Shown: piece after piece, positions 10,179 through 59,111 of the stretch
Position numbering within the stretch: position 1 is the stretch's first letter
Layout: each line of letters starts with the position of its first letter
Virus record (IMG/VR): IMGVR_UViG_3300029305_002725
Span: 36,815-100,814 of that record
Strand: one strand, 5' to 3'
DNA length: 64,000 nt
Origin: a virus
Taxonomy: Duplodnaviria > Caudoviricetes
Program-made: the position numbers and the translations under genes
Notes under the pieces: generated by a model
What the model saw: the letters and a program-made list of their open reading frames with translations, nothing else
The model's database searches: none
Told to the model about the DNA's origin: nothing

Positions 10179-10181
10179 AAT

Positions 10182-10505
10182 ATGAACAATAATATGATGG
10201 GCCAAGCTATGTTAATTGCCTATGCTGAGCTTGGTGTTCAAATTGACAGATTTGACAACACAGATACGGGAATTATATTGCTATTTACCGTACCAAAGGG
10301 CTCCTATCATAGAGGCGCTGACAATATAGAAATGTCTGGCAAACATCTTGCATCAAGAGTAAAGCGTACACTTGAAGAAATGGGCGTTGTTTTTGCTGAT
10401 TGTAGATGTAAGATTCGTGATGAATACTGGAGCGAAGATATGGCGAAGCTTGCTAAGAAAATGGCATATAAAGACATTGGATATAAAGATTGGCAAATTA
10501 AATGA
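10182..10505 (+). CDS. hypothetical protein
   Basis: ORF track; GAGGTG SD. Confidence 0.7.
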   Translation: MNNNMMGQAMLIAYAELGVQIDRFDNTDTGIILLFTVPKGSYHRGADNIEMSGKHLASRVKRTLEEMGVVFADCRCKIRDEYWSEDMAKLAKKMAYKDIGYKDWQIK

Positions 10506-10514
10506 GGTGACTCA

Positions 10515-10706
10515 ATGGAAGAACTTAAACAAGGAATCTGGGAACGAATAGTAAAGCAGCACGGCAACGAGCAAGATGGTTTCTGGACAGAACAGTTTTG
10601 GAAATGCTCAGAATGTAACTATGAGCGCCGTGATGCATTTATTCCAAAATACAAGCCGAATTACTGTGAAGATTGTGGTGCATATATGAAAGGTGATCAA
10701 AAATGA
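10515..10706 (+). CDS. zinc-ribbon protein
   Basis: WKCSEC...YCEDCGAYM. Confidence 0.7.
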   Translation: MEELKQGIWERIVKQHGNEQDGFWTEQFWKCSECNYERRDAFIPKYKPNYCEDCGAYMKGDQK

Positions 10707-11011
10707 CAGTAGAACAGCTAAATAAAGCAAATGAGATTCAAAAAGAAATTGAGATGCTAAATAAGGTCTTTTCTATGCTAGACTCTACAATTGTATATGA
10801 AGAAGATAGAGGTACACCAATTAAAAGTTTTATTCGTTTTATTAACGGAAAGCTTAAGAATTGGGAGGAACCTAAGGCACATGTAATTCTATTTAGAGAT
10901 AATAGAGTCTCTGGTGAAGACATTCCTGTTGATGTGGAATTTCTCAAGTGCTTGCGTTCATATTTTCAGGATCGTCTGAATGAAAAGAAACGAGAGCTTG
11001 GTGATATTTGA
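10703..11011 (+). CDS. hypothetical protein
   Basis: ORF track; ATGA overlap. Confidence 0.7.
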   Translation: MTVEQLNKANEIQKEIEMLNKVFSMLDSTIVYEEDRGTPIKSFIRFINGKLKNWEEPKAHVILFRDNRVSGEDIPVDVEFLKCLRSYFQDRLNEKKRELGDI

Positions 11012-11301
11012 TGGCAAACTGTAAAACTTGTATGCACGAACAAGCTTGCGCCGCATGGATTCGCCATGGAGAAATGCTATATGATGATTTTGAGTACTCT
11101 GTAGAGGATTGTCAGTATTACACTAAGGCCGCACATGGAAGATGGATGTGGGAAGGACAATTTAAAGCGTGCTCTGAATGCGGTTCATATGTTGAATGGA
11201 GTGAAACACTTGGAGCAAATTTTTGGAAGTATTGTCCGTATTGTGGCATAAAAATGGAGGAAGATAATATTGATTGGCGTAGAAATTTTAGCAACGAATG
11301 A
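11008..11301 (+). CDS. Cys-rich protein with C-terminal zinc ribbon
   Basis: HGRW...CSECG...YCPYCGIKM. Confidence 0.7.
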   Translation: MMANCKTCMHEQACAAWIRHGEMLYDDFEYSVEDCQYYTKAAHGRWMWEGQFKACSECGSYVEWSETLGANFWKYCPYCGIKMEEDNIDWRRNFSNE

Positions 11302-11614
11302 AGTTGTGGTGGCGTATGAATTTAATTGGTATATATATGTTGGGATTATTATTGTTGTTACTGTTATTATGGTTTTAATATCAATTATGAATGTTCGTTA
11401 TGTCGGAATTGAAGACATTGTTGTTGGAGCAATTGTTGGTCTTGTTTTGGGCACAATATTTGGACTGCCTATTGCAAACAATATAATTCCAAGTGAGTAT
11501 GAAACACACTATAAAGTCACAATCTCTGACGAAGTATCAACGAATGAGTTTTTAGATCAATATGAAATCATTGGTCAAGAAGGAAAGATTTATACAGTGA
11601 GGGAAATAAAATGA
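11270..11614 (+). CDS. two-TM membrane protein
   Basis: Two hydrophobic stretches; GGAGG SD. Confidence 0.7.
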   Translation: MIGVEILATNEVVVAYEFNWYIYVGIIIVVTVIMVLISIMNVRYVGIEDIVVGAIVGLVLGTIFGLPIANNIIPSEYETHYKVTISDEVSTNEFLDQYEIIGQEGKIYTVREIK

Positions 11615-42497: not shown

Positions 42498-43196
42498 GTG
42501 CCTCAAAACATATTTAAAATTTATGATGGACGCAATTGTTTTTGGCAGTGGGATACTAAGCAAAAACTTATTGTTTTAGATGAACGTGTCACAGAGGTGC
42601 GTTTTTCTAACAGAGATATGGAGCATTCTAAAAGAAGACCAGTCTATGCTGATAAAAATGGATTAAGAATTTGTAATGTTCCAGATATATTGCTACAGCT
42701 GCCTAAAAATTTAATTGCATATGCATGTATGAAAAATGGTGATGGTTCTTGTAGTACAATCAAAGCGGTTAAATTTGCAGTTACTAGGCAGCCAATCCCT
42801 ACTGATTATATATGCGAGCAAGATGCTGTGATTGAGGATATTCTATTTAGAATTGAACTATTGGAAAACTTGTTGAAAGACGTTGAAGCCGGTAAACAAC
42901 AATTTGTTAAGTTCAACAACGAAGTGGATGCCGCAAAATGGGCACTTGATAACGGAGAACCTGGAGATATTATCGTTGTTCATCTTACTGTAGGCTGGGT
43001 GCCACATACTATTGAAAATGATAGGAGCATTAAGCCTATTTGCAATTGCGAGGGTGAAATGATGATTATCGCTCTTGATGGAGATGATGCCGATGGAATT
43101 CCAGAAGATGAAGTTGAAATATATTATGACGGAAACTATATGGATGACGCAGATCTGATCCGATGTTTTGATGGTGGAAATGCTGCAGGTATTTAA
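42498..43196 (+). CDS. putative fibre anchor A
   Basis: FWQWDT.QKLIV...V.R.P.P.DYI domain; close paralog of 49043. Confidence 0.6.
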   Translation: MPQNIFKIYDGRNCFWQWDTKQKLIVLDERVTEVRFSNRDMEHSKRRPVYADKNGLRICNVPDILLQLPKNLIAYACMKNGDGSCSTIKAVKFAVTRQPIPTDYICEQDAVIEDILFRIELLENLLKDVEAGKQQFVKFNNEVDAAKWALDNGEPGDIIVVHLTVGWVPHTIENDRSIKPICNCEGEMMIIALDGDDADGIPEDEVEIYYDGNYMDDADLIRCFDGGNAAGI

Positions 43197-43245
43197 TTGT
43201 ATTGGCAGTTTTTTCATATAAAAAATTATGAAAGGATGATATTGA

Positions 43246-44124
43246 ATGGCAGTTCAAAAAATCAAAACTGTGTTCCAATTCCGTAGAGCGACTGCGGAAG
43301 AGTGGCTGTTAAATAAAGACGTTAAACCTGCCGCTGGTGAACCTTGTTTTGTTATTGATGAGAACATTCTAAAAATTGGTGATGGTATTCATACCTTTGA
43401 GCAGCTAGAGCCAATTAATGGTGTCAAACTAGAAATTGCCGCTGATGAAAAGTCTATTATTTTAGATGATAATATTCTAAAACTAATGGGCTTTGATGAT
43501 GCACCAGAAGGTGCTCAGCCGCAAAAGGATAAAGACGGAAAACTTAAGTGGGCTGTTCCATCTACTGAAGTTATTGACACTCTAAAATCTGATGTTGCGG
43601 GTTTAAAAACTAGTGTTGATAGCATTGCAACTGATGTTGGTGGACTACAGACCGAAGTTTCTGACCTAAAGGTTATCATTGGTTCTGACGATAGTGGTTC
43701 TGAAACACTATTGTCTAGAATTGAAGGTCTAGAGAAAGAAGTTGACACCATTATTAATGGTTTAACACCTGATGATGGCACAATTGATAGTTTAGTTGAA
43801 CTTATTAATTATGTTGAAACTCATGGTAAAAAGACTGCAAAAATCGTATCTGATATCACTACGCTCCAAGATTTGGTTGGTACAGATCCTGTTGCTGATC
43901 AAATCGCTACAGCCACTGCCAATTGTGTCAAGAAAATTGCTGTTAATGGTATTCTACTAGATATGATTGATGGCAGGATTGATATTACTATTCCTGAAAT
44001 TAAGGAATCTGATGAGATCGCTGTCAATGAAGATGGTTCTTTAAGCATTAAGACTATTAGCTTTGACAAGATTGCACAGAGTCCCGACGTTACCATTATT
44101 ATGGATGGTGGAAGTGCTGTCTAA
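43246..44124 (+). CDS. fibre protein with Mtd_N-like N-terminal domain and coiled coil
   Basis: QFRRATAEEW...GEPCF...LKIGDG..TF.QL. Confidence 0.7.
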   Translation: MAVQKIKTVFQFRRATAEEWLLNKDVKPAAGEPCFVIDENILKIGDGIHTFEQLEPINGVKLEIAADEKSIILDDNILKLMGFDDAPEGAQPQKDKDGKLKWAVPSTEVIDTLKSDVAGLKTSVDSIATDVGGLQTEVSDLKVIIGSDDSGSETLLSRIEGLEKEVDTIINGLTPDDGTIDSLVELINYVETHGKKTAKIVSDITTLQDLVGTDPVADQIATATANCVKKIAVNGILLDMIDGRIDITIPEIKESDEIAVNEDGSLSIKTISFDKIAQSPDVTIIMDGGSAV

Positions 44125-44167
44125 CAGTACAAAATTAATGTAAGTTTACGAATGAGGAGGTGATATT

Positions 44168-45148
44168 ATGAGAAAAGGTATTGATTGTAAGGGTCGTGAG
44201 TGGGAAGAAAATTTCAATAAACTGTCACCAGATAAAGATTTAGTTGGAAAGGTTTTTGGAAAACTTTCTGTTCAATTTCGAGTTCAAAATGACAAGCAAG
44301 GAAATTCATATTGGATGACTTCATGTGAATGTGGCAATGATCTTGTGGTGAAAGGTGTTAGTCTTAGAAATCAACATACGAAATCTTGTGGTTGTTCATC
44401 TAGCGAATTTGTGTCAGAAAAATTAATAAAACCATTTAATATTGGTGAGCAAATTGGATATTTTACTATTATTAAACAGGCTGATGGTTATCTTGGAAAA
44501 GGTGCGTATTGGCATGTTTTGTGTAGATGTGGAACAGAAAAGGTTGTACAGGCTGAAGCACTGCGAAATGGCGCAATCGTGTCATGTGGATGCTATCATA
44601 AAGATGTAACACGAGAAAAAAACTTAATTGATTTATATGGAAGAAGATTTGGTTATTTGACTGTGTTAAAACTATCTGATAATCAGCTACATGATGAACT
44701 TTATTGGACTGTTCGTTGTGACTGTGGAACAATTAAAGATATTTCAGGTCATAGTATGAAAAGCGGAAATACGATTTCTTGTGGATGTAAAAAGCGTTCA
44801 TTTGGAGAAACTGTAATTGACCAGCTATTGACGACTAATGAAATATCATTTAAATCAGAATATGTTTTTACCGACTTGTTGTCACCTAGAAATGGATACT
44901 TAAGATATGATTTTGCTATTCTTGATACAAACAATCGACCAACTAGGCTGATTGAATTTGATGGGCAGCAGCACGATGAACCAGTAGATTATTTTGGTGG
45001 CAGTGAATCATTTCAAATTTTAAAAGAAAACGACAAACTGAAAAATCAATATGCATTATCTCATAATATACCACTAGTTCGTTTACCATATACAAAAAGA
45101 AATAATATAAATTTAGAAGATCTCTTAGGAGATAAATATTTAATTTAA
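44168..45148 (+). mobile_element. free-standing putative homing endonuclease (zinc-ribbon repeats + Vsr/DUF559-like nuclease)
   Basis: 3x G..FG.L.V...W..C.CG...L..G...SCGC repeats, then S.GE, LRYDF, IEFDGQQH, D..KN, IPL.R.PY. Confidence 0.75.
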
Positions 45149-45163
45149 AGGAGAAATGTAATT

Positions 45164-47275
45164 ATGGCTATTGAAAATGCAAAGACTCTAAATGTAAGAA
45201 TTCGTAATAAGTATGACTCTTATGAGAATTGGATTTCATCTGGTCTAACTTTAGAGGCTGGAGAAATTGCAATCGCATATACCACAGTTGATGTTAAGGT
45301 TGATAATGGTGTAGCAAAACATCCAGCATTGCTTGCAAAAGTCGGCAATGGATCCGACTCCTTTAAGGATTTACCTTGGCTAAGTGCTCGTGCAGCTGAT
45401 GTTCTAGCTGTTTGTAAGAATGAAGCCGAACTAAAAACCTTCATCAATGGTGTTATTGCTGATGCTGGCATTGCTTCTAGCGATGCTATGGAAGCTCTAG
45501 CTGGCAGAGTTACCACTGCTGAGGGCAAGGTTACTACCCTAGAGGGCAAGATGACAACTGCAGAGGGTAAGATTACTGCTAATGAAGGTGCTATTGCTAC
45601 TCTAAACGAGCTAGTTGGTAACACTTCTGTTAACGCTCAGATTAAGGCTTATGTTGACGCTCTAAATCTAGCTGACACTTATGCTGCAAAGACTCACGGC
45701 CATGCTATTGCTGATGTTGAAGGTCTATCTGACAGTATTGCCGCTGCCAAGAAGGCTGGTACTGATGCCAATGCTGCGCTAGAGGCTTACAAGACCACTA
45801 ATGACGCTGCCGTTAAGGTTAACTCCGATGCTATTACTGCTATTAAGAATGGTACTTCCATTGACAACTTCAAGGAAGTCGAAGAGGCTCTAGCTGGCAA
45901 GCAGGCTGCTGGTGACTACTCTGTTGTTGGTCACAAGCATGAAATTGCTGATGTGAACGGCTTATCTGATGCTATCGCTGATGCTAAGAAGGCTGGCACT
46001 GATGCTGCTACTGCTGCTGGTCAGGCTCTAACTGACGCTAAGGCATACACCGACAGCGAGATGACCAGACTAGTTGGTGCAACTCCTGTTGCTGATCAGA
46101 TTTCTGGTGCTATTACCGAGCTAGACCTAGCCAACACTTACGACGCTAAGGGTGCAGCTGCTGCCGCTGAGACTGCTGCTAAGTCCCACGCTACCGAGCT
46201 AAATACTGCTATGGATGGCAGAATGCAGGCTGTTGAGGCTAAGAAGCACGAGCATGAGAATAAGACTGTTCTAGATGGCATTACTGCTGAGAAGGTTGCT
46301 GCTTGGGATGCTGCTGAGCAGAACGCTAAGGATTATGCTGATGATCTAGACGAGGCTATGGATGCTAGAGTTCTAGCTCTAGAGGCTAAGTTCGGTGATG
46401 GCGAAGGCAACGTTGAAGCTCAGATTGCTGCCGCTGTTGCTGCTGAAGCTAAGCTACGTGACGATGCTGACAAGGCTCTACAGGCTCTAATTGAGTCCAA
46501 CGATGCTGATATCCTAGCTCTACAGGGTCTAGTTGGTGAAACCAAGGTTTCTACTGCTATTGAGACTGCTGTTAATGCTGAAAAAGAAAGAGCAATGGGC
46601 GTTGAGGGTGGTCTAGAGACCAGACTAAAGGCTGTTGAGGACGATCATCTAGTTGCTGCCGACAAGACCGAGCTAGAGGGTAAGATTAAGTCCAACACCG
46701 ACGCTATTGCTCTACTAACTAATGGTGCTGATCCTGATGTTGTTGACGGTGTTACCGACCTAATTGCTTATGTTGCAGAGCATGGTACTGAGGTCACTGG
46801 TATTAAGGCCGACATCAAGACCAATGCTGATGACATTGATGCTCTAGAAGGCAGAATGACTACTGCCGAAGGTGCTATTGCTACCAAGGCTGCTCAGGCT
46901 GACCTAGAGGCTCTAGCTGGTCGTGTTACTACTGTTGAGGGCGACCTAAACACTGAGACCACTGGTCTAAAGGCTAGAATGACTGCTGCTGAGGCTGATA
47001 TCGATGCTCTAGAGGCAAAGGTTGACACTGGTGATAAGAAGGTTTCTGAGTATGTTGCTGCTGCTATCAATGCACTAAGCATTGGTGATTATGCTAAGGC
47101 TGCAGACCTAACCGCTGCTATTAATCAGCATAACACTGACAAGGCTGCTCTAGAGGCTGAAATTGCTAAGAAGGCTAACGATGCTGATCTAGCTGCTATT
47201 GCTAAGACTGGTTCTACCGACGATCTAGTTCAGGGTGAACTTGTTCTAGTATTTAACTGCGGTGGCGCTAACTAA
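45164..47275 (+). CDS. long coiled-coil fibre protein with Mtd_N-like N-terminal domain
   Basis: RIRNKYD..ENW...GEIAI...KVGNG...F.DLPW; Ala-rich heptads; H.H.IADV.GL repeats. Confidence 0.75.
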   Translation: MAIENAKTLNVRIRNKYDSYENWISSGLTLEAGEIAIAYTTVDVKVDNGVAKHPALLAKVGNGSDSFKDLPWLSARAADVLAVCKNEAELKTFINGVIADAGIASSDAMEALAGRVTTAEGKVTTLEGKMTTAEGKITANEGAIATLNELVGNTSVNAQIKAYVDALNLADTYAAKTHGHAIADVEGLSDSIAAAKKAGTDANAALEAYKTTNDAAVKVNSDAITAIKNGTSIDNFKEVEEALAGKQAAGDYSVVGHKHEIADVNGLSDAIADAKKAGTDAATAAGQALTDAKAYTDSEMTRLVGATPVADQISGAITELDLANTYDAKGAAAAAETAAKSHATELNTAMDGRMQAVEAKKHEHENKTVLDGITAEKVAAWDAAEQNAKDYADDLDEAMDARVLALEAKFGDGEGNVEAQIAAAVAAEAKLRDDADKALQALIESNDADILALQGLVGETKVSTAIETAVNAEKERAMGVEGGLETRLKAVEDDHLVAADKTELEGKIKSNTDAIALLTNGADPDVVDGVTDLIAYVAEHGTEVTGIKADIKTNADDIDALEGRMTTAEGAIATKAAQADLEALAGRVTTVEGDLNTETTGLKARMTAAEADIDALEAKVDTGDKKVSEYVAAAINALSIGDYAKAADLTAAINQHNTDKAALEAEIAKKANDADLAAIAKTGSTDDLVQGELVLVFNCGGAN

Positions 47276-47301
47276 TATTAGTTAATTTGAATAAGAATGA
47301 T

Positions 47302-47330
47302 GGGGAGCCTGAAACGATGGCTCCCCTCTT
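47302..47330 (+). terminator. terminator-like hairpin
   Basis: GGGGAGCC...GGCTCCCC. Confidence 0.6.
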
Positions 47331-47370
47331 CTCTAAAATCTGAAATGATGATTTGAAGGAGAAATTAATA

Positions 47371-48792
47371 ATGGCTGAAAAAAATTTAAATAATATTCGT
47401 ATCATTAATAAACATGATACAGAAGAGAACTGGCTAAAAGCCACGGGATTTTCACCATTACAGGGTGAACTTATTGTTTATGACGTAGATGCTAATTATT
47501 CATATGAGCGCTTAAAAATCGGTGACGGCACAACAAATGTGAACGACCTACCGTTTATTGATGATTCTTTATATGAGCAAATTAAAACAGAAATTGACGC
47601 AATTCCAGTTCCAGTACAAGCTGATTGGAATGAAAATGATAGCACAAGTATATCTTATATTAAAAATAAGACGCACGGTGTTGAAAAAGTTGACGTTGTT
47701 GTCATAGAGGAACAAGAGGTCACTTTTGTTTTAAGTGAGTCGCTTTATATGGCAGAGGTTTCAGGCACTTTCTTGCATGAACCAAACATGGTTGATGAAA
47801 ATGGATTTACTATCATATGGGATGGTGAAACATATCAAAGATCTATCGTTATTTTTTATGGAGATTATTTTATAGGTAATTTATCTATATTGACTGGTGA
47901 TGAAACACATAATACGGGAGAACCTTTCGTGTTTATGTGTTACCCTGATGGATGCCTTGTTGGATGTCCGCAGTCTGAAGGAATGGTACATACCATTAGT
48001 TTGTCATATAATGCAGAAGACGTACAAAAGCTAGATATGAAATATTTGCCAAGTGATTTGGCATTGAAGTCTGAAATACCAACTATTCCTACAAACGTTT
48101 CAGCATTTGTTAATGATGCAGAATATGTTGCTTTAATCAAAGGTAATGAACAAACTTTTGAATTTACAAGAGACGAAACTTATTCTGGAGACCATTTTAA
48201 ATGGAATGGTTTTGATTATTATAAAGTTTCCGATATGACACCGTTATATGATGATATTACCGCTGTAAGTGGTACGTGGTTTGCTAATGGTAATATATCT
48301 ACTCAAGAAACTCTGATGACCGGCACTTCTTGTTATTATGCTGGACATGCTATAGTTATTATTGAGCCAGGTTCTTGCACACTTTCAAATATGACTTTTA
48401 ATGCACCATCTGCCGGTATTTATTTTAAGAAGTCTAGCGATACATATTATCAGACCGCATTGTCTATGACATTTGCACGTAAATGCATCAGCGACAATAT
48501 TATTCCAGATAATATTGCAAGAACACCAAAAATGACAGGCGTAACATTATCTGCTACAAGTTGGACTGGTGATACTAATCCATATTCTCAAGTTGTAACC
48601 ATTAATGGAGTCACTACTAATAGCAAGGTTGATTTGCAGCCTACTGCGTATCAAATTGTTGAAATGCAGAACAATGATATTGCATTTATTGCAGAGAATA
48701 ATGATGGTGTAGTTACTGTTTATGCTATTGGTGGTAAGCCTGCTGTGGATTATACTATGCAAGCATTAATTACGGAGGTGGTTGTAGTATGA
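47371..48792 (+). CDS. fibre protein with Mtd_N-like N-terminal domain
   Basis: KHDTEENW...GELIVYD...LKIGDG.T.V.DLPF; QADWNEND...YIKNK motif. Confidence 0.7.
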   Translation: MAEKNLNNIRIINKHDTEENWLKATGFSPLQGELIVYDVDANYSYERLKIGDGTTNVNDLPFIDDSLYEQIKTEIDAIPVPVQADWNENDSTSISYIKNKTHGVEKVDVVVIEEQEVTFVLSESLYMAEVSGTFLHEPNMVDENGFTIIWDGETYQRSIVIFYGDYFIGNLSILTGDETHNTGEPFVFMCYPDGCLVGCPQSEGMVHTISLSYNAEDVQKLDMKYLPSDLALKSEIPTIPTNVSAFVNDAEYVALIKGNEQTFEFTRDETYSGDHFKWNGFDYYKVSDMTPLYDDITAVSGTWFANGNISTQETLMTGTSCYYAGHAIVIIEPGSCTLSNMTFNAPSAGIYFKKSSDTYYQTALSMTFARKCISDNIIPDNIARTPKMTGVTLSATSWTGDTNPYSQVVTINGVTTNSKVDLQPTAYQIVEMQNNDIAFIAENNDGVVTVYAIGGKPAVDYTMQALITEVVVV

Positions 48793-48986
48793 AGATAGTC
48801 GGTAATATGGTCGGATGCTACAGCCCGATTGGTAAAACCTTTATTCTCGAAGATGAAAATGGAAATGAACTTACTGGTATTGTTGTAGATCAAGAAGTAG
48901 TATTTACAGCAACTGCAGCGGATATTGTGAAAGGTAAAGTTGCTGGAACTGAAGATGGCGTTGTTGTTGGAACACATGAATGTTAA
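48789..48986 (+). CDS. small fibre-associated protein
   Basis: TATAADIVKGK.A...G.V.GT motif; ATGA overlap. Confidence 0.6.
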   Translation: MKIVGNMVGCYSPIGKTFILEDENGNELTGIVVDQEVVFTATAADIVKGKVAGTEDGVVVGTHEC

Positions 48987-49042
48987 TATATGGTACTAGT
49001 AAATTAAATATAAATATTGCACAATTTTGAAAAGGAGGTGCA

Positions 49043-49777
49043 TTGATGCCTGATAAGATATTTAAAATTCATGATGGAAGAACAAATTTCTGGCAATGGG
49101 ATACACAACAAAAATTAATCGTCTTAGATGAAAATATTACAGAAGTTCGTTTTTCCAACAGAAATATGGATCATTCAAAACGTAGAATTGTTTATACTGA
49201 CAATGATAATAATAGGGTTTGCAATGTACCAGACATACTATTACAACTACCAAAGGATTTAATGGTATACGCCTGTATAAAACAAGATAATAAGTCTTTT
49301 CGTACTGTTAAGGCAGAGAAATTTGAGGTGTATAGACAGCCAATTCCATCTGATTATATTTGTGAGCAAGATGCGGCAGTTGATGCGATTCTTGGTAGAT
49401 TAGAAATGTTAGAAAATCTTATTGAAGATATTAAAAATGGAAGCCAAGAACTTAAGAGGTTTGACAATATAGTTGATGCAGCAAAATGGGCGGTGACTAA
49501 CGGCACTGCTGGTAATATTGTTGTTGTTTATATAGAAGATAAGTGGGTTCCCCATGTTATTGAGGGAGATTTTACTTTATCTGCTATTTGTGATTGTAGT
49601 GGCGAAATGATGAATATAGGTACTTATGTACCTAGACTTGAACATGATAAATTAATTTTTGAACTAAAAGACACTCCTGATGAAGAAAAGATTGTTATTG
49701 ATATTGACAGAACTAATGAGTGGGGTACTATTGAAACCGCCAATGATACTAATTATATTTGGGAGTATTTGGAATAA
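49043..49777 (+). CDS. putative fibre anchor B
   Basis: Paralog of 42498 with a different C-terminus. Confidence 0.6.
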   Translation: MMPDKIFKIHDGRTNFWQWDTQQKLIVLDENITEVRFSNRNMDHSKRRIVYTDNDNNRVCNVPDILLQLPKDLMVYACIKQDNKSFRTVKAEKFEVYRQPIPSDYICEQDAAVDAILGRLEMLENLIEDIKNGSQELKRFDNIVDAAKWAVTNGTAGNIVVVYIEDKWVPHVIEGDFTLSAICDCSGEMMNIGTYVPRLEHDKLIFELKDTPDEEKIVIDIDRTNEWGTIETANDTNYIWEYLE

Positions 49778-49840
49778 TATTATGAGTAGAAATGATAAAA
49801 TCGTATTTCTATAAATTGATTTTATGAAAGGAGAAAACAA

Positions 49841-50344
49841 ATGGCAAATAATAATGTGCGTTTTATCAATGTTAAATTACAAGAGACTTATGATTCTTTA
49901 CTTCAAAAGGATGCTAGTACACTTTATTTTGTTCAAGAAACAAATAGATTTTACCACGCTGACCGCCTAATGGGTACTGGTGCATTGGTTGGAGAGATTG
50001 CCGGTTTAATGTCTCCAGAAGACAAGAAAAAACTTGATGAATTAGTATCTAGCTCCACTTCTGGTTTGTCGCCGGTGGCGGGTGATGGTATTGTTATTAG
50101 CAATAATGTTATTGAAGTTAATATTTCTGATAATGCACATGGTCTAACTGCTGTCGATGGTGCTCTGACCATTAAACTCGCAACAGCAGAAAGAGACGGT
50201 GCTATGTCTGCCGCAGATAAGGCAGCTCTAGACTCTTTGGTCGCACTTGGTATTGTTGATAATTACGCCACTAGAACAGAAGTACAAGCTATTTTTGATA
50301 AAATTACATCTGTTGAAGAATCTTACACTTGGGGTGAGATATAG
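49841..50344 (+). CDS. fibre segment protein
   Basis: TLYF..ET, GLMS.EDK.KLD and GAMSA.DK fibre repeats. Confidence 0.6.
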   Translation: MANNNVRFINVKLQETYDSLLQKDASTLYFVQETNRFYHADRLMGTGALVGEIAGLMSPEDKKKLDELVSSSTSGLSPVAGDGIVISNNVIEVNISDNAHGLTAVDGALTIKLATAERDGAMSAADKAALDSLVALGIVDNYATRTEVQAIFDKITSVEESYTWGEI

Positions 50345-50377
50345 TTTATAATACAATTTTATAGGAGGAAAATAAAC

Positions 50378-51937
50378 ATGGCATTACTGAGATTTTTGAA
50401 GGGTAATTATAACTCCCTAAGCTCTGCCACTATTACAGAGGGTCAGGTGCTAATTTGTGGTGACACTGGTGAGATGTTTGTTGACGTTGCTGCCGACAAG
50501 CGTGTAAAAATCGGTGATTTCGTTGTTGTGTCTAATCTAGCGGCACTAGAGATGTTGGATGCGTCTGCTGTTCCTACTTCTAGACTTTATTATGTTGAAG
50601 ATGGCAATATTTTAGCACGCAGCAATGGAACCACCTGGATCCAAATAAACAAGCAGCAAACCCTTTCTGAACTAGGCGGTGTTGCTAAGTCCGTTTATGA
50701 GGAAAAAGTTGTATCTCTAGAGAAAGCAGACACTGACAATGCTAATGCAATTGCTGACGTTGACACTAGACTTAAGACTGCTGAAGATAAGCTAAAGTCC
50801 GTTGCAACCACTGAGGGTCTAGGCGATTTGGCAGACACTGTTGCTGAACATGCAACCGCTATTGATATTATTAATGGCACTGTTGAAACTGAAGGCTCTA
50901 TGCTAAAGATTGCTAAGGATACTGCAGACTTAGCTATCAGCAACAAGATTGGCGACGTTGAAGATGGCAAGACTATTGTTGATATGATTGCCGAGGTGCA
51001 GTCTTCATCTGGTTATGACGACGAAGAAATTCGTGGTTTAATTAATGATAATGCCGAAGCTATTGATCAAGAAATTTCTGATCGTGAAGGTGCAATTTCT
51101 GACTTGCAAAGCGAGTTGGAGGATCAGATTAGCAGTAAGGTTGCACAGTCTGATTATGATGATAAGGTTGCTGAATTAGTTGCCGAGGATGAAAGACTAT
51201 CTGGTCTAGTCAATGGTAATGCTGCTGCTATTGAAGAGCTAGGCGGTGAGATTGACACTCTAGTTGGTGACGATGCTGGCAAGTCTATTCGTACTATTGC
51301 TAATCAGGAACTAGCTGCTCAACTAATTCCTGAAAGTGCAGCTGAAGCCCTAGATACTTTACATGAGATTGCAGCTTGGATTCAGGAGCATCCCGATAGT
51401 GCTTCTGCTATGAACGCTGCTATTGGGACTCTACAGGATAAGGTAGATACTGGTGATCAGACCGTGTCTGCATATGTTACTGCTGTTATCGAGGCTTTAA
51501 ATATTGGTGACTATGCTAAAGCTACAGAACTAGCCGCTGCCATTGAGCGCATTACTGCTCTAGAATCCTCTTCTGCTACTCATGCAACTAAGACTGAGAT
51601 GCAGAGCGTTGCTGATGATCTAGATGCTTATAAGCAGAATCATAATACCGATTATGACAATGACACTATTGACGCTAAGGTTAAGGGTGTTCAGGATCAG
51701 ATTGATGCTCTTGATAATACCTATGCTACTGATGCAGAGCTAACATCTGCTATTAATGCAGAGGTTGAGCGTGCTAATGGTGTTTATGCTGACAAGACTA
51801 TTGTTGATAGTCATACAAGTAACACAGATATTCATGTTACTACTGCTGACAAAGAAAAGTGGAATTCTGCACAAGAAAACGCAGAAAAAACTGCAAATGA
51901 TGCTCTAATAGCAGCATTGTCCTGGAGTGAGTTTTGA
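50378..51937 (+). CDS. coiled-coil fibre protein
   Basis: LDTL.EIAAWI.EH motif; heptads; shares KVDTGD..VS.YV...I.AL.IGDYAKA with 45164. Confidence 0.7.
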   Translation: MALLRFLKGNYNSLSSATITEGQVLICGDTGEMFVDVAADKRVKIGDFVVVSNLAALEMLDASAVPTSRLYYVEDGNILARSNGTTWIQINKQQTLSELGGVAKSVYEEKVVSLEKADTDNANAIADVDTRLKTAEDKLKSVATTEGLGDLADTVAEHATAIDIINGTVETEGSMLKIAKDTADLAISNKIGDVEDGKTIVDMIAEVQSSSGYDDEEIRGLINDNAEAIDQEISDREGAISDLQSELEDQISSKVAQSDYDDKVAELVAEDERLSGLVNGNAAAIEELGGEIDTLVGDDAGKSIRTIANQELAAQLIPESAAEALDTLHEIAAWIQEHPDSASAMNAAIGTLQDKVDTGDQTVSAYVTAVIEALNIGDYAKATELAAAIERITALESSSATHATKTEMQSVADDLDAYKQNHNTDYDNDTIDAKVKGVQDQIDALDNTYATDAELTSAINAEVERANGVYADKTIVDSHTSNTDIHVTTADKEKWNSAQENAEKTANDALIAALSWSEF

Positions 51938-51956
51938 TTAAAACTAAAAAACATAT

Positions 51957-51985
51957 GGGCTAGTGGGGAAACTCACTAGCCTTTT
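51957..51985 (+). terminator. intrinsic terminator
   Basis: GGCTAGTG-gggaaact-CACTAGCC-TTTT. Confidence 0.75.
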
Positions 51986-52116
51986 ATAAAAAACGTATTT
52001 TAACATATTTAAATTTGAAAATAATAGTTAGGTTTTATGGACGGTTAGAGACGCATAAACTAATTTTTACATAAAGCTAACAAAAATCTGTCTTTAGAAA
52101 GGATTGATTGTAGAGC

Positions 52117-52521
52117 ATGGCACTTTTTAAAATTTTCAAGGGCTTAAAAGCAAATTTGCCATCGACAAAAACCGCTGGTTATTGCTGGTATACCATTGAT
52201 GATTCTTTGTTTTATATTGATTATGAAGATGAGAATGGCGTTGTGCAACGTAAAGCCCTAAATAGTCAAGATGCACAAACTTTGTGCGGTGCGTCCTTGT
52301 CTACAATTGTAACTGAAAGTGATTCAAAAATACCTACATCTCAAGCCGTACTTTCTGCAATTGCGGCAGCTGTTAGTAATGCAATTAATAATTTAAATAC
52401 AACGATTCAGGCAAAATTAAATGATAAAGCGCCAAAATATACTTATGGTACAACAGATTTAATTGAAGGCACGAGCACCCTTCCTGCAGGAACATTATAT
52501 TTTTATTATACAACAGATTAA
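52117..52521 (+). CDS. fibre adaptor protein
   Basis: LFKI.KG...LP N-motif shared with 53494; ends YTYGT.DL..G.S.L..GTLYF. Confidence 0.6.
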   Translation: MALFKIFKGLKANLPSTKTAGYCWYTIDDSLFYIDYEDENGVVQRKALNSQDAQTLCGASLSTIVTESDSKIPTSQAVLSAIAAAVSNAINNLNTTIQAKLNDKAPKYTYGTTDLIEGTSTLPAGTLYFYYTTD

Positions 52522-52541
52522 TTAGAAGAAGGTGTTGTATT

Positions 52542-53366
52542 ATGAGTAAAACATACATTAGTCCTTCTAGTACAGCTTGTTTAGTTAATAAAATATATTT
52601 AGGTGATCCAAGTAAATCAATTGCACGTGCGGTTAAAAAGGCTTATATTGGAGACGAAAATAATAAGGCACAATTAATATTTATTTATACCTCATGGTCT
52701 TGTAGTGATCCAGTGTTATATTCAACGGCTACTGATCAAACTGGTAGTATATCCGGGTATAGTAATTTTGAGTTTGATAATGAAACTGGATATTTTACTT
52801 TATTAGGATCTGCAACTGATTATACTTTAGCAAATTTATATGTTAGTGGTGCATGTGTTTACACGGAAACATATCATGCACCTGGTATGCAATATATGGT
52901 GCTACAAAAGGTCTCTGACATAAAATCTACTCCAATGTATACTTATGACATATGGGCGATGACAAAGGCTCGTGGAGAAGATAAAATTAGATATGAGGAA
53001 AATGATACTGTAACTGGATACACTGCACTTACAAAGGGTGGAGGTGCTTCTGGTCCAACATTTAACTTATCTGGGTATTTTAACACGGAATTTTTCGAAC
53101 AGTTTGGAGAAGACGGTGGGACTTATTATACAATAGACCGTTCAGAACCAGGCTATTATGAATGGACTGTAACTTATAATCCAAGTAATTGGGGATATAC
53201 CCAGTCATACGTGCATCATTATCCAATTCAGTCAAGTGAAACATTTAGTAGTAAACAAATTGTTGGTTGGAATGTGACTAAAGACGTGTATATGAATAAT
53301 GAAGTAATTGGATCAAAGAATTTATATACCATTGAGACATATAGAATAATCGCAATGGAAAACTAA
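52542..53366 (+). CDS. putative receptor-binding tip protein
   Basis: V.KIY.G...AR.VKKAYIG N-motif; Tyr/Thr-rich variable domain. Confidence 0.5.
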   Translation: MSKTYISPSSTACLVNKIYLGDPSKSIARAVKKAYIGDENNKAQLIFIYTSWSCSDPVLYSTATDQTGSISGYSNFEFDNETGYFTLLGSATDYTLANLYVSGACVYTETYHAPGMQYMVLQKVSDIKSTPMYTYDIWAMTKARGEDKIRYEENDTVTGYTALTKGGGASGPTFNLSGYFNTEFFEQFGEDGGTYYTIDRSEPGYYEWTVTYNPSNWGYTQSYVHHYPIQSSETFSSKQIVGWNVTKDVYMNNEVIGSKNLYTIETYRIIAMEN

Positions 53367-53493
53367 TTTTTTAAATACGTAGTAGTTCATATATTTTGGC
53401 AATCTTATATTTAAAAAGATTTATCTTCAGAGTTGCTTATTAGCATATTATAGTTATATTTTTAAAATAATAAATAAGAAAGGGTGATTTATA

Positions 53494-55113
53494 GTGTCAT
53501 TGTTTAAAGTAAATCGTGGTAATGAAATTGATCTTCCAACTGAATTAAATGATGGATGGATATATTTTTGTGTGGATACTGGTAGAATTTTAATTGATCA
53601 TTATAACTCCACCAACAATCTTGTTCGTTCTAAAGTCAATGCAGAATGCGCAGATACACTCCGCTATGTTCAAGATGGAGAAACTATTGAGCTGACTCCA
53701 CAAGACATCAATATTGCTCTTAATAATAAAGCTGATAAAACAGAAACTTCAGATTTAAATGATAGGATTGATGATGTAGAAAATAGTATTAATATTACTA
53801 ACCAAACACTAAATGGTGTTTCTCAAGAATTTGAAAGTTATAAAACAACCAATAACGATGCTGTTTCTACAAACGCCAGTGGTATTGCGAGTAATAAGGA
53901 TGCTATCGAAGAAATTCAAGGCGATTACTTAATGTCAACTGACAAAACACAGCTACAAGACGATATCTCAAAAGTATCTGAAAAGGCTACTGCAAATGCA
54001 TCTGCAATAGAAATCTTAAATGGCGAAGGTGATGGATCTGTTAAGCAATCTATTGATAATGCTTTTAATGAATTTGCTGCAAATGTGACAAACGATGATG
54101 TAGTTAATACCTATAAAGAGTTGATTGATTATGCTGCAACACATGGTCCAGAATTTGTTGCTCTTGTAGGCGAGGTTGATACTATTGACTCACACGTTGG
54201 TGAAATCGAAGCAGGTTTTATTGAGTATCAAGATGATGTTTCTGAACGATTTACCGAGGTTGATACAATAATTAATAATCACGTGGATAATACGAACAAC
54301 CCTCATGGTGTAACAAAAGAGAGCATCGGTCTTTCAAATGTTGATGATACGTCGGATATGAATAAGCCAATTAGCAGTGCCATGCAGGCAGCCTTGGACG
54401 AAAAGGCAGATATAGGACATGTTCATGATAATATATACTATACAAAGGATGAAGTTACAGAAGTTATTAATGAGCATGCTTCTAATATAGAAAATCCTCA
54501 CGATGTCACAAAAGAACAAATTGGTCTTGCGAATGTTGACAATACATCTGATATGGACAAACCAATTAGCTATGCTACACAGGCGGTTTTGGATGAAAAG
54601 GCAGATGCAAACCACGATCATGATAATGCATACTATACAAAGGATGAATTGTCAGAGATGTTCGAACTGATTACCATTGATGATATTGATACTATATGTT
54701 TAGGGCCAATTATATCATTTACAATAGGTGATACGTTATATAGGGCAATAGAAGGTATGACATGGGCTGAGTGGGTAGATAGTAGATTTAATACAGGTAT
54801 GTGGTACATTGGTAGTGAAACATATATAGAAAGGCAAGAGGGAACAATTTCAGGTGTAGCGACAACTGATGTAATAATGCCGAACAATGCCTATACCATA
54901 TCTGTAGGGAAGACTATATCATTTACAATAGGTGATACGTTATATAGGGCAATAGAAGGTATGACATGGGCTGAGTGGGTAAAAAGTGGATATAATGTAG
55001 ATGGATGGTACGTTAGTGGTGAGTATGTAGATGGCCCAGATTGCACAATGCCTGGCGTATTTGCAACTGATGAAATCATACCAGATAATGTCTATCAGGC
55101 ATTTTATTGGTAA
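53494..55113 (+). CDS. fibre protein with internal repeats
   Basis: 2x H..N..NPH.VTK..IGL.NVD.TSD..KPIS; 2x ISFTIGD..Y.AIEGMTWAEWV. Confidence 0.7.
   Translation: MSLFKVNRGNEIDLPTELNDGWIYFCVDTGRILIDHYNSTNNLVRSKVNAECADTLRYVQDGETIELTPQDINIALNNKADKTETSDLNDRIDDVENSINITNQTLNGVSQEFESYKTTNNDAVSTNASGIASNKDAIEEIQGDYLMSTDKTQLQDDISKVSEKATANASAIEILNGEGDGSVKQSIDNAFNEFAANVTNDDVVNTYKELIDYAATHGPEFVALVGEVDTIDSHVGEIEAGFIEYQDDVSERFTEVDTIINNHVDNTNNPHGVTKESIGLSNVDDTSDMNKPISSAMQAALDEKADIGHVHDNIYYTKDEVTEVINEHASNIENPHDVTKEQIGLANVDNTSDMDKPISYATQAVLDEKADANHDHDNAYYTKDELSEMFELITIDDIDTICLGPIISFTIGDTLYRAIEGMTWAEWVDSRFNTGMWYIGSETYIERQEGTISGVATTDVIMPNNAYTISVGKTISFTIGDTLYRAIEGMTWAEWVKSGYNVDGWYVSGEYVDGPDCTMPGVFATDEIIPDNVYQAFYW
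54711..54981 (+). repeat. 67-bp identical intragenic direct repeat (54711-54777, 54915-54981)
   Basis: TATATCATTTACAATAGGTGATACG...GGGCTGAGTGGGTA. Confidence 0.9.
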
Positions 55114-55130
55114 ATAAGGAGGTAAGATAT

Positions 55131-55835
55131 ATGACAAACTCTTCAATTTTAGATGCTTTTGAAAGATTTTGGGAACATGTAACTACTGCTCTTGGTAAAA
55201 AATCCGATATTGACCATACTCATGCTATAATTCCAAGAAATTTAATTGATAACTCTGATTTTACAAACCCTGTCAATCAGAGAGGGCAAACATTATATAG
55301 TATTTACAACAATGGCATGACGATTGATAGATGGAAACTTGGCAGTTCGTCACCGGTATCTGTGTCTGTAATTGTGAATGAAAATGGTTTAACGGTTAAT
55401 TTCAATAACTCACCTAATCCTTTTGCAACCATGAGACAACGCATTCCAGAAGGTTTACTTTCGCCTGATAAAAAGTATACTTTTGCAGTCTATTATGCTA
55501 GTAAAGGATTGAGAGTTAGTGATCACAGCGCAAACAGCGTAAGCACCTATCCGCGGATAGATAAATACGGTGATACTTATTACGCGGAATTTTCTATGGA
55601 AGAGGATGAAACGGTTGTTTGGGCAGCGCTCTACGAGGGGGAATATACCGTAGATACGTTACCTGAGTATCAACCAAAGGGATATGGTGCGGAATTATTG
55701 GAATGTCAGAGATATTACCAGATTCGCTCCACAAACAACGTTCCAGCAGTTGATATGCGTCCTACAATGATAAGTAGCTCTCCAACCATTACTTCTGTGA
55801 GTGGTGGATATGCCTATTCTGTGGAAGGATTTTAA
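55131..55835 (+). CDS. tail-fibre tip / carbohydrate-binding-like protein
   Basis: NLIDNSDF..PVNQRGQ...IDRW...Y..ELLECQRYY family motif. Confidence 0.7.
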   Translation: MTNSSILDAFERFWEHVTTALGKKSDIDHTHAIIPRNLIDNSDFTNPVNQRGQTLYSIYNNGMTIDRWKLGSSSPVSVSVIVNENGLTVNFNNSPNPFATMRQRIPEGLLSPDKKYTFAVYYASKGLRVSDHSANSVSTYPRIDKYGDTYYAEFSMEEDETVVWAALYEGEYTVDTLPEYQPKGYGAELLECQRYYQIRSTNNVPAVDMRPTMISSSPTITSVSGGYAYSVEGF

Positions 55836-58139: not shown

Positions 58140-59111
58140 ATGGAAGAATATATTGGAGGATATAAAGTATATCAAGGCAAATGTGGAAACAGGCACAAGA
58201 GCTTGATAGGACAAAAATTTGGTATGCTCACAGTTATTGCACGAGGAGAAAATAAAGGAAATAATCCTAGATGGATTTGCCAATGCGATTGTGGTGGTTA
58301 TTCTTTATCTATGACTGGAAACTTAAAACAGGGTATTTCAACGTCTTGTGGATGCCAAAGCAGTCGAAAACAAAGAAGTGGCTTTATAGATTTGATGGGA
58401 AAACGATTTGGAAGACTATTTGTATTGGAAGAGGCTTATACAATAAAGAAACGTATATATTGGAAATGTCGATGCGATTGTGGAACAGTGTGTTATGTAT
58501 GTGGTGATGAACTTCGACATGGTAAAACAAAATCATGTGGGTGTTTAAAAAGTGAAATGACGACAGAGAGGTGTCTTATAGACATAACAGGGCAACGTTT
58601 TGGAAAATTAGTGGTATTACATAGGGTTCCTACAATAAATGGAAAGTGGGTTACATGGAGATGCCAGTGTGATTGTGGAAACATTGTTGATGTTCCAAGT
58701 TGTAATTTAAGATATGGTTATTCAACATCCTGTGGATGCACAACATCGAAAGGTGAGGAGCGTATACTTCAAATATTAACAGAGCAAAAATTATCATTTA
58801 AGCCACAAGTTAAATTTACAGATCTTTTTGGTAAGAAATTCCCTCTTCGATATGATTTTGGCATATATAAAAATAGTTGTCTGTTATGCTTAATTGAATA
58901 TAATGGTGAACAACATTATCGGCCAGTAGATATTTTTGGTGGTGAAGAAGGATTTAAGATACGCCAAGAATATGACAGGCTTAAAGCTAACTACTGCAAG
59001 GATCATAATATTCCTTTGATTATTATTCCATATACTGAGTATGACAATTTAAGTTGTAATTTTTTATTGAATTTAATTAAACAAAATACAGGTTTTACAA
59101 TACAAAATTAA
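58140..59111 (+). mobile_element. free-standing putative homing endonuclease (paralog of 44168)
   Basis: 3 zinc-ribbon repeats, SKGE, LRYDF, IEYNGEQH, IPL.IIPY. Confidence 0.75.

Follow-up and report, generated by a model that had tools for sequence, protein, structure and literature searches.

The window (the whole 64,000-nucleotide stretch of DNA, from a large uncultured gut phage, that was analysed) probably encodes two sets of tail-fibre pieces, joined by two kinds of joint that are not interchangeable. In the reading that we prefer, to which we give a probability of about 0.65, each set consists of separate and probably trimeric polypeptides held together non-covalently, with the C-terminal peptide (plug) of one protein bound by the N-terminal cap (head) of the next. 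The features concerned are:

42498..43196, + strand: anchor A (232 aa), a putative baseplate-adaptor body (residues 1-190) and a flexible tail with an A-type plug at its end
43152..43193, + strand: A-type plug of anchor A, DLIRCFDGGNAAGI (residues 219-232), which is the contact stretch in the complex model
43246..44124, + strand: segment A1 (292 aa), made up of an Mtd_N head (about residues 1-60), a helical shaft and a small beta module, with ..IIMDGGSAV as plug
44168..45148, + strand: free-standing HNH homing endonuclease in the A1/A2 junction, outside the fibre (PHROG 374, E 1.5e-41)
45164..47275, + strand: segment A2 (703 aa), with an A-type head (VRIRNKYDSYENW), a long shaft rich in Ala/Glu/Lys and ..LVFNCGGAN as plug
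47371..48792, + strand: segment A3 (473 aa), KHD-type head (IRIINKHDTEENW), beta-rich body and tip ..ITEVVVV; terminal, without plug
49043..49777, + strand: anchor B (244 aa), body as in anchor A and B-type plug ..DTNYIWEYLE
49841..50344, + strand: segment B1 (167 aa), with a B head (MANNNVRFINVKL..) and ..EESYTWGEI as plug
50378..51937, + strand: segment B2 (519 aa), with a B head (MALLRFLKGNYNSL..), a long shaft and ..IAALSWSEF as plug
52117..52521, + strand: short B3-headed protein (134 aa), head MALFKIFKGLKANLP.. and C-terminal end ..GTLYFYYTTD
52542..53366, + strand: 274-aa protein without family, which holds KIYLGDPSKSIARAVKKAYIG (KIY..KKAYIG motif)
53494..55113, + strand: second B3-headed protein (539 aa), head MSLFKVNRGNEIDLP.., with fibre repeats and two copies of a C-terminal beta domain
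55107..55835, + strand: 242-aa fibre-like protein with neither A nor B head (PHROG 4492 tail fibre C-terminus, E 7.4e-8), the gene of which overlaps the 3' end of 53494 by 7 nt

Since a Shine-Dalgarno site is present for each of the head genes, the products are separate polypeptides. The C-terminal peptides and N-terminal heads quoted in a preliminary description of this DNA are all present in the ORF translations: the ends are ..CFDGGNAAGI (42498), ..IIMDGGSAV (43246) and ..VFNCGGAN (45164) in chain A, and ..NYIWEYLE (49043), ..SYTWGEI (49841), ..ALSWSEF (50378) and ..GTLYFYYTTD (52117) in chain B. It had also been proposed there that tails and heads fall into two classes which match within a chain, and their co-occurrence in adjacent genes of related phages bears this out. 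Among 604 unique adjacent gene junctions, taken from related and unrelated phage contigs, an A tail (D[G/C]G-x-A) is followed by an A (Mtd_N-like) head 73 times and never by a B head ("MALFK..G" type), and a B tail (W-x-x-x) precedes a B head 53 times and an A head not once (Fisher p 2.5e-63 and 7e-39, odds ratios 163 and 53; most counted junctions are related by descent and not phylogenetically independent). The same tails are seen in loci that were fetched from contigs of other phages by head similarity only: the upstream gene ends in ..DGG.A.. in all but one of the unique junctions having an upstream ORF (the lone exception, L113, is a mid-gene match), and at least four of the upstream protein families have only the tail in common with the anchor. 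Class B gives the same picture when its loci are gathered in this way. Across 114 unique tails, D-G-G is spelled by 39 different 9-nt codon combinations. Judged from these sequences, the pairing of tail and head is conserved far beyond this phage, at the level of protein rather than DNA. Within class A a finer correlation is observed, which would set the order of the segments: adaptor tails (DGG.A.G.) are accompanied by Q.RR heads, shaft tails (L.LDGG.A.) by RI.LK.D..NW heads and DCG tails by K[H/R]D.E.NW heads, the KHD-type class following DCG tails in 7/7 unique junctions.

According to its description, Mtd_N forms the N-terminal end of fibre proteins; Mtd of Bordetella phage BPP-1 and the hyaluronidase HylP of streptococcal prophages carry it. 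All three chain-A heads had been called Mtd_N-like, which holds without reservation for 43246 (E 6.5e-8; 32.8 bits, residues 11-47, and 36.5 bits when the genome was searched, against a Pfam gathering cut-off of 26.3 bits for PF18454); the HylP head (6x3m) aligns with it at E 6.6e-4. The heads of 45164 (15.0 bits) and 47371 (17.7 bits) score below this cut-off and are tied to 43246 only by a custom HMM and alignment. The former, a weak Mtd_N match, is matched by the custom head HMM, and the HMM built from the three chain-A heads picks up all A-type heads in relatives. Needle and fibritin-like PHROG matches are obtained for the A2 shaft. The chain-B heads are not Mtd_N (no match for 49841, 50378 and 53494 at E up to 1), and profile-profile comparison of A with B heads (hhalign) yields a probability of 5.6%. 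Bodies are nonetheless common to both classes: L012_11750 (A head, chain A) and L035_1802 (B head, chain B) have bodies that are 52% identical over 344 aa (E 1.7e-104) and unrelated heads, the head of L035_1802 being 78% identical to that of B2 (50378). Likewise, the last 85 aa of A3 (47371) are 49% identical to the tip of the B3-headed protein L018_8621. Receptor-binding bodies evidently exchange heads to suit their chain.

Identity between the two anchors is 62% over their first 192 residues, and their last 40 or so residues are unrelated. Whereas the common body presumably binds the same kind of baseplate site, the plugs at the flexible C-terminus differ, so that each anchor would recruit its own fibre set. 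More than 1000 homologues were obtained for anchor A, with D225, G226, G227 and G231 invariant. On the tree of anchor bodies the B-tailed anchors do not group together: they make up two starred clades (98/99 and 98/100) that lie among A-tailed anchors, anchor B sitting in a starred clade of five B-tailed members. The downstream heads change together with the tail type, which has switched at least twice, each time with matching heads. The pair of anchors did not arise by local duplication; A and B are old allelic types, either of which is carried singly by other phages.

Docking itself had been put forward for every joint, and a complex prediction agrees with it for anchor A and A1. Three copies of A1 head residues 1-100 and three of anchor A residues 170-232 were modelled in one job from custom, unpaired alignments, giving an ipSAE of 0.78 (runs 0.79, 0.55 and 0.78) against 0.39 for the best of three controls, at a contact agreement between runs of at least 10% and a partner pLDDT of only 41-46. 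In the calibration of the prediction tool, 58 of 80 solved complexes came up to this mark, as did 2 of 110 mismatched pairs, counts that are only rough for this case. The predicted interface runs between residues 219-232 of anchor A and residues 1-15, 19-20, 22-23, 26, 29, 34 and 51 of the A1 head, thereby placing the invariant anchor residues D225/G226/G227/A229 against the invariant head residues Q11/R13/R14/W20/C34; in this model the last 14 residues of the anchor are predicted to dock on roughly the first 15 of the head. Both partners are disordered on their own. The AF2 model of anchor A (pLDDT 67) has a beta domain (1-95), a helix (108-130) and an alpha/beta domain (137-180), followed by a tail (196-232) with pLDDT below 50, and the A1 monomer has helices at 107-225 with disorder at residues 1-14 (pLDDT below 50) and 287-292. 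A sequence search yielded no solved complex of such a joint, the only match being free HylP (6x3m).

The DGG/Mtd_N joint is also present in well-known phages, which suggests that fibre architecture may be readable from sequence. In Javan467 an endopeptidase (..MILDGGS) lies upstream of HylP, and in S. mitis MissF PblB (..FIFDGGRT) lies upstream of a hyaluronidase; gp24 (..INCGGADAFLT) precedes gp25 in crAss001, and gp26 (..DFDGGEL) precedes gp27 in Gordonia Vendetta. The tail reads ..FNFDGGSAA in Arthrobacter Ryan and Persistence, and in Arthrobacter MellowYellow the pair occurs twice in series (..IDGGTP). Three heads were tested (Javan467, crAss001 and Ryan) and match Pfam Mtd_N at E 2e-12 to 3e-14. 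The finer code is not universal, since crAss001 combines an NCGG tail with a Q.RR head, and the Mtd_N heads of cyanophages P-RSM4 and Syn19 and of Gordonia StarStruck have no DGG tail upstream. We found no published description of these tail/head joints, nor of a binding partner of the Mtd_N domain.

Mechanistically, the last 10-14 residues or so of a protein (a hydrophobic strand and a turn) would be bound by about the first 15-50 residues of the next head. In class A, phi-x-phi-[D/N]-[G/C]-G-x-[A/S] would dock on an Mtd_N-type head, in class B, phi-x-W-x-[E/D/S]-phi may dock on a 'M-A-L-F-K-x-x-x-G...L-P...G..Y' head, and the two would not mix. The most likely assemblies in this phage would then be anchor A - A1 (43246) - A2 (45164) - A3 tip (47371), and anchor B - B1 (49841) - B2 (50378) followed by 52117 or 53494. 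The product of 53494 (B-head HMM score 96, with matches to PHROG tail fibre families) is likely an alternative tip for the B2 plug. A fourth chain-B pair, formed by the YFYY tail of 52117 and the KIY..KKAYIG head of 52542, had been suggested and is unsupported: the motif is unique to the window and absent from about 170 loci examined, and the 52542 product has no Pfam or PHROG match. The 52117 protein is a candidate adaptor to a further partner. The B-type head at 53494-55113, fourth in chain B, was missing from the preliminary description.

Gene order had been thought to encode assembly order. This holds within the window but breaks down in relatives: in five genomes with a DCG-tailed gene lacking an adjacent head gene, one strong KHD-type head (E 1e-32 to 1e-36) is found at another place, 10-23 kb off in four of the five (G001, G002, G004 and G005), while in L003 it lies immediately upstream of the anchor. 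If an upstream gene is present in the flank of the remote head, that gene is without a DCG tail. Strictly linear chains are unlikely, given four B heads against three W tails in chain B and three A-type heads after one free DGG tail in L017-type phages. Since heads can outnumber tails, some fibres are probably alternative or branched. Short headed proteins without plug between the anchor and A1 in L009 and L011 likewise speak against one linear chain.

It might be argued that the headed proteins are independent short fibres on the anchors or baseplate, the C-terminal motifs being ends of shaft modules that dock nothing. We consider this improbable, though several observations point towards it. 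Besides the surplus of heads over free tails and the terminal DCG tails without adjacent partner gene in many relatives, the A1 homologues of L017, L027, L030 and L039 have ..LILDGG.A.. internally, followed by a tip of about 170 aa in the same chain, so that the motif, instead of being a free plug, may be where a shaft module ends. The anchor model is also weakly like BppU of TP901-1 (4v96, E 0.018, probability 0.66), where three receptor-binding trimers are held per adaptor trimer. BppU chains are among the top Foldseek matches (4v96 chains at E 0.018-0.027, probability 0.51-0.66 and TM about 0.2, a weak match), with BFVD 'BppU domain protein' entries at E about 4e-3, and the anchor model has the element order of TP901-1/Tuc2009 BppU, a small trimeric adaptor in which a baseplate-binding domain at the N-terminus is followed by a helical linker and then by a C-terminal part holding the BppL trimer N-termini. 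However, there is no sequence similarity, the holder here would be a disordered terminal peptide, and the protein held can bear a further plug. Independent fibres would moreover leave A1 and A2, mostly helical shaft, without distal domain, a design that is sensible only with something attached at their ends. Nor would they explain that the tail subclass predicts the next head subclass, that a KHD head is retained elsewhere in genomes whose DCG tail is orphaned, that MellowYellow has two joints in series, or that in the complex model the head is met by the terminal peptide and not by a folded anchor domain.

Still less probable is mere linkage, in which a tail and the next head are co-inherited as one DNA block (a recombination linker at a module boundary) and make no contact. 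Just 15-95 nt separate the two motifs, mosaicism is seen in fibre modules and homing endonucleases are repeatedly found in these junctions, but the synonymous sites of the motif are scrambled, the pair is retained with its genes 10-23 kb apart, the same tail sits on unrelated proteins in phages of three bacterial phyla, always preceding an Mtd_N head, and the complex model passed its controls. Chance likeness of short gene-end motifs is refuted, despite motifs of just 5-7 residues and a coded W-tail pattern that also matches unrelated proteins (36 junctions), because 126 paired junctions (odds ratios 163 and 53) contain 0 cross pairs and because the A-tail motif is present in 82% of genes preceding an A head against 2.7% of genes without an A head after them.

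Peptide-and-cap joining, as we propose it, resembles known systems in part. The T4 long tail fibre (gp34-gp35-gp36-gp37) is built from the products of several genes, connected end to end, and the genes lie in the order of assembly; here such joining is predicted, for one junction. The end of gp36 (..VQDFGYY) and the start of gp37 (MATLKQIQFKRS..AEGELAINLKD) resemble a class-A tail and head, but at motif level and not as homologues, since the gp37 N-terminus matches neither Pfam Mtd_N (E up to 1) nor the A/B head HMMs. T4 has a monomeric kneecap (gp35) and chaperones, and is without a second orthogonal joint class and without paralogous anchors. In streptococcal prophages, the gene upstream of hylP has the DGG tail that is seen in the window. 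In the anchor-branch receptor-binding proteins of Klebsiella phages and Ackermannviridae, T4gp10-like branching domains dock further receptor-binding proteins by short, conserved N-terminal anchors (PMC8262889, PMC10253068, PMC9700779). A tail-anchored first protein with docking sites and a modular, swappable build are shared features; there, however, docking takes place along folded gp10-like domains and gives branches, whereas here a terminal peptide would meet an N-terminal cap, serially and in two non-mixing classes. No Pfam/PHROG family of gp10-like branching domains was found on anchors or segments.

The assignment to SPbeta-like phages finds no support: among 50,697 phage records there is no megablast match of the region and no tblastn match of the anchor, and the listed portal matches, about 30% identical, are to an Alicyclobacillus phage, Brevibacillus phage Sundance and Lactococcus 949-group phages.

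Short B3-headed proteins elsewhere bear other tails, DCG and DGG included, and a B head with an A tail would be a natural converter. Tentatively, and with confidence slightly short of even, terminal peptides and cognate caps could form a general assembly grammar with at least two orthogonal classes and order-setting sub-classes, extending from streptococcal prophages and actinophages to crAss-like phages, in which converters and exchangeable anchors bolt on a second fibre set. In that case the genome sequence would suffice to predict how fibres are built and where each receptor-binding protein attaches, and heads of about 50 residues could be exchanged to re-mount receptor-binding modules.

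The endonuclease that had been noted as inserted between 43246 and 45164 is confirmed as an HNH homing endonuclease. A homologue lies between the anchor and A1 in L064, and the window holds a paralogue at 58140-59111.

Two classes of pairing are distinguished among the fibre genes, according to the C-terminal peptide of one protein (tail or plug) and the N-terminal domain of another that is proposed to bind it (head or cap). Class A combines a DGG/DCG-type tail with an Mtd_N-like head, and class B a W-type tail with a MALFK..G-type head. Every gene at 42498-55835 lies on the + strand.

Features of the fibre region (single coordinates are gene starts)
42498, +, anchor A, 232 aa
43246, +, A1, class-A head
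44168-45148, +, HNH homing endonuclease, between A1 and A2
45164, +, A2, class-A head
47302-47326, terminator-like hairpin: GC-rich inverted repeat GGGGAGCC..GGCTCCCC, then a T-rich run
47371, +, A3, class-A head (KHD-type)
49043, +, anchor B, 244 aa
49841, +, B1, class-B head
50378, +, B2, class-B head
51958-51981, terminator-like hairpin: GC-rich inverted repeat GGCTAGTG..CACTAGCC, then a T-rich run
52117, +, short protein, class-B head of subtype B3
52542, +, protein with KIY.G..KKAYIG motif
53494, +, 539-aa protein, B3 head
55107-55835, +, 242-aa fibre-like protein, overlapping the 53494 stop by 7 nt and ending ..VSGGYAYSVEGF

All C-terminal peptides and heads quoted in the preliminary description are present in the ORF translations. 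Its assignment of Mtd_N heads throughout chain A stands for 43246, which exceeds the Pfam cut-off; 45164 and 47371 are sub-threshold, yet align with the 43246 head. The second head class comprises 49841, 50378, 52117 and 53494 (the last had been overlooked). These heads matched no Pfam family, and their profile gave only spurious beta-propeller blade matches against PDB sequences. Homology of A and B heads was not supported (profile-profile hhalign probability 5.6%). Each head gene is preceded by a Shine-Dalgarno sequence of its own and the two hairpins occupy two longer intergenic spacers of the fibre operons, which indicates that the fibre segments are separate polypeptides. Translational recoding across the junctions is ruled out by these ribosome-binding sites, together with the two junctions that have terminator-like hairpins; the hairpins may set different expression levels of proximal and distal segments.

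The window derives from a 100.8-kb IMG/VR virus contig (completeness estimate 63%), and the relatives of this phage are metagenomic phages of 155-176 kb. Against 50,697 phage records neither megablast of the region nor tblastn of the anchor gave a match. Searching genome contigs with the anchor returned one binned MAG contig labelled Eubacteriales, which does not establish the host. By portal (~30% identity) the closest cultured relatives are an Alicyclobacillus phage, Brevibacillus phage Sundance and the Lactococcus 949 group; the earlier label 'SPbeta-like' is unsupported.

Loci (numbered L) were fetched with the anchor (24 viral contigs, 18 metagenomes and 1 MAG) or with head alignments alone (80 + 20 + 25); heads were classed by HMMs seeded from the window and tails by two regular expressions. 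In 604 unique adjacent junctions we counted 73 A tails followed by an A head and 53 B tails followed by a B head, with zero cross pairs in either direction: the classes are unmixed in all 126 paired junctions. The A-tail motif is found in 82% of the genes before an A head against 2.7% of other genes. Co-occurrence of tail and head types in adjacent genes, proposed beforehand as a check, is a property of related phages as well; the 604 junctions share descent, so p-values overstate their independence, but five further observations are independent of that. The fourth pair proposed for chain B, 52117 (..YFYYTTD) with 52542, is confined to the window and has no other instance in any locus. No ORF of the fetched loci contains an internal A or B head, as a fused tail-plus-head form would.

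At loci found by head similarity only, on contigs of other phages, the upstream gene ends in ..[IVFWY]DGG.A.. in all unique cases with an upstream ORF but one (L113, where the match is mid-gene). With some of the upstream proteins the anchor has only its C-terminal alpha/beta domain in common, and in L077, L094, L123 and L126 the tail is the sole common feature. The D-G-G codons occur in 39 nine-base combinations among 114 unique tails, and this free synonymous variation shows that conservation acts on the protein.

Several named phages also have this pair. Where Pfam was applied to their heads (Javan467, crAss001, Ryan), it clearly identified Mtd_N domains (E 2e-12 to 3e-14). No such pair precedes the Mtd_N-headed proteins of Gordonia phage StarStruck or of the cyanophages P-RSM4 and Syn19.

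Class-A pairs in named phages
S. pyogenes prophage Javan467: endopeptidase ..QMILDGGS, then HylP
S. mitis phage MissF: PblB ..FIFDGGRT, then hyaluronidase
Javan166: ..IIFDGNGGI
Bacteroides phage crAss001: gp24 ..INCGGADAFLT, then gp25
Arthrobacter phages Ryan and Persistence: ..FNFDGGSAA
Arthrobacter phage MellowYellow: two joints in series, ..IDGGTP
Gordonia phage Vendetta: gp26 ..DFDGGEL, then gp27

Receptor-binding bodies swap heads according to their chain: L012_11750, with an A head, shares 52% identity over 344 residues with the B-headed L035_1802, whose head in turn is 78% identical to that of 50378, and a B3-headed tip has 49% identity to the final 85 residues of 47371. Tails switch likewise. 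In a maximum likelihood tree built from the anchor body without its tail, the B-tailed anchors fall into two distinct, well-supported clades that lie among A-tailed anchors, and the heads downstream switch along with the tails. Anchors A and B belong to different clades; they are 62% identical across 192 residues and diverge completely thereafter, against 72-78% identity of anchor B to B-type anchors of other phages. Each relative examined has one anchor type, the window phage both. The window is the clearest natural evidence of orthogonality, its anchors differing essentially only in the plug and each being followed by heads of its own class only. Distant pairs exist too: five genomes have a DCG-tailed A2 protein without a head gene after it, and each encodes a single strong KHD-type head (E 1e-32 to 1e-36) at another site, 10-23 kb off in four genomes and, in L003, directly before the anchor. 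Any gene that the fetched flank includes upstream of this head has no DCG end.

Within class A the pairing appears finer still. Adaptor tails (DGG.A.G..) go with [FI]Q.RR.T..W heads, shaft tails (L.[LM]DGG.A..) with R[IL]..[KR].D[ST]...W heads and [DN]CG tails with RI..K[HR]D.E.NW heads (7 of 7). This sub-code fits the order anchor-A1-A2-A3, a correspondence confounded with orthology; it is not universal, crAss001 combining an NCGG tail with a Q.RR head.

For the anchor A/A1 junction a single complex was predicted (three copies each of A1 residues 1-100 and anchor A residues 170-232, with our own alignments). This prediction, which covers one cognate pair of the multimer check proposed in the preliminary description, yielded an interface with an ipSAE of 0.78 (runs 0.79, 0.55 and 0.78) against 0.39 for the best of three controls; in calibration 58 of 80 solved complexes and 2 of 110 mismatched pairs attained that mark, counts that are only roughly valid here. 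Contacts agree between runs to at least 10%; with a partner pLDDT of at least 41, the fold of the partner itself is uncertain. Predicted contacts join anchor residues 219-232 (DLIRCFDGGNAAGI) to head residues 1-15, 19-20, 22-23, 26, 29, 34 and 51, and the interface residues are those invariant in the alignments (anchor D225, G226, G227, A229; head Q11, R13, R14, W20, C34). In models of the single proteins, disorder is seen both in the anchor tail (196-232) and in residues 1-14 of A1, as would be expected if these two peptides fold against one another. The only PDB sequence match is free HylP (6x3m), which makes it unlikely that the result stems from a remembered complex. Overall, docking of tails on heads is probable (roughly 65%), as a prediction.

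Several findings are at odds with a simple chain. Four A1 homologues (L017:10713-12374, L027:10706-12271, L030:804-2393, L039:2606-4255) have the motif internally (..LILDGG.A..), followed in the same polypeptide by a C-terminal tip of ~170 residues (NVTIDLGGK..GAIKVEGG..GTDLIYASG..) that looks like a right-handed beta-helix. The fused form corresponds to the position of a gene boundary in the window. By this reading the motif marks where a shaft module ends distally; what comes next is joined there either covalently or, in split form, through a separate headed protein. The tip domain at the C-terminus of 47371 (..[IL][TQ]EV..V) is a separate gene of 103-123 aa in some relatives (L011:15387-15758, L186:2214-2564, L018:10723-11034), so even the tip is sometimes split off.

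Heads exceed plugs in chain B of the window (52117 and 53494 are both B3-headed) and in L017-type phages, and L009 and L011 have a short plug-less headed protein between anchor and A1; a strictly linear chain was therefore an over-statement. The same applies to the claim that gene order encodes assembly order, since order is not conserved among relatives and the KHD head may lie far away or upstream of the anchor. Taken with the internal DGG, these departures make alternative or branched occupancy of some fibre positions probable. The anchor model has a weak likeness to BppU of TP901-1, which would allow branching or alternatives because each BppU chain holds a trimer; a Foldseek search of the PDB with this model had no match at or below E 0.001.

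Fibres made of several proteins, and receptor-binding proteins mounted on adaptors, are already known, but to our knowledge which protein sits on which cannot be read from sequence for most phages. The serial segments of the T4 long tail fibre are functionally similar, as are adaptor or anchor-branch systems (BppU; branched receptor-binding proteins of Klebsiella phages and Ackermannviridae). Unlike in these, the joint described here is predicted to be a terminal peptide bound by an N-terminal cap, it can recur serially, and it comes in two classes without mixing in the paired junctions. The T4 gp36 end (..QDFGYY) and gp37 start (IQFKRS..GELAINLKD) resemble the class-A joint at motif level; neither Pfam nor our head HMMs link gp37 to these heads. 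We found no literature description of the joint, including in work on 0305phi8-36, crAss001, A1002, PhiXacm4-11 and T4. In the crAss001 cryo-EM structure the fibre proteins distal to gp22 were too flexible to resolve (PMC10172136).

If true, a plug/cap pair conserved in phages of Bacillota, Actinomycetota and Bacteroidota would name a partner for the widespread Mtd_N domain, that of streptococcal prophage HylP and of crAss001 gp25 included. The fibre architecture of uncultured phages could then be annotated, and small orthogonal connectors would be available for work on host range in laboratory systems of phage and bacterium.

Natural proteins that combine a class-B head with a class-A plug ('converters', ~100-110 aa) also occur. 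The first (L077:3612-3944; head MAIIAFKKGLAINLP.., plug ..DLIDGGNAAGIE) has an Mtd_N-headed gene after it; before the second (L135:6098-6403, also present as L158; head VALFKSLRGKREKLP.., plug ..TLIFDCGNSNV) lies a ..LAWGSF tail, with no A head recognised downstream. A third head class without Pfam match (MAKYNLDKYT..GLGFPLNFRRGNPNPLD or MADFGKLNF..AFPLDARYYF) occurs in L012:13025-14887, L080:5251-6543 and a 382-aa ORF of L149 upstream of position 4001. These proteins have a DGG plug, or a W plug in L149 (..IDIEWGTF), and usually come after a terminal protein.

L045 is a siphovirus-like contig of much smaller size, on which the anchor N-terminal domain has two distant homologues in tandem (9995-11532; NFWQWD motif, 27% identity). 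They lack A and B plugs and come after tape-measure, Dit-like and Tal-like genes, a position that would fit the anchor body being a baseplate-attachment module.

HNH homing-endonuclease genes are placed exactly in tail/head junctions: besides the window copy between A1 and A2, there is a 46%-identical homologue that separates anchor and A1 in L064 (3413-3994). A 39%-identical paralogue follows the lysins of the window (58140-59111), and junctions of L038 and L041 are interrupted by other, unrelated ORFs of 418-435 aa. The conserved junction sequences may serve as homing sites. Finally, a 284-aa protein with an end similar to that of 55107-55835 (..VTGGYAYSADL) is encoded upstream of the anchor in L023 (8618-9472), and this different placement is another sign of mobile fibre genes.
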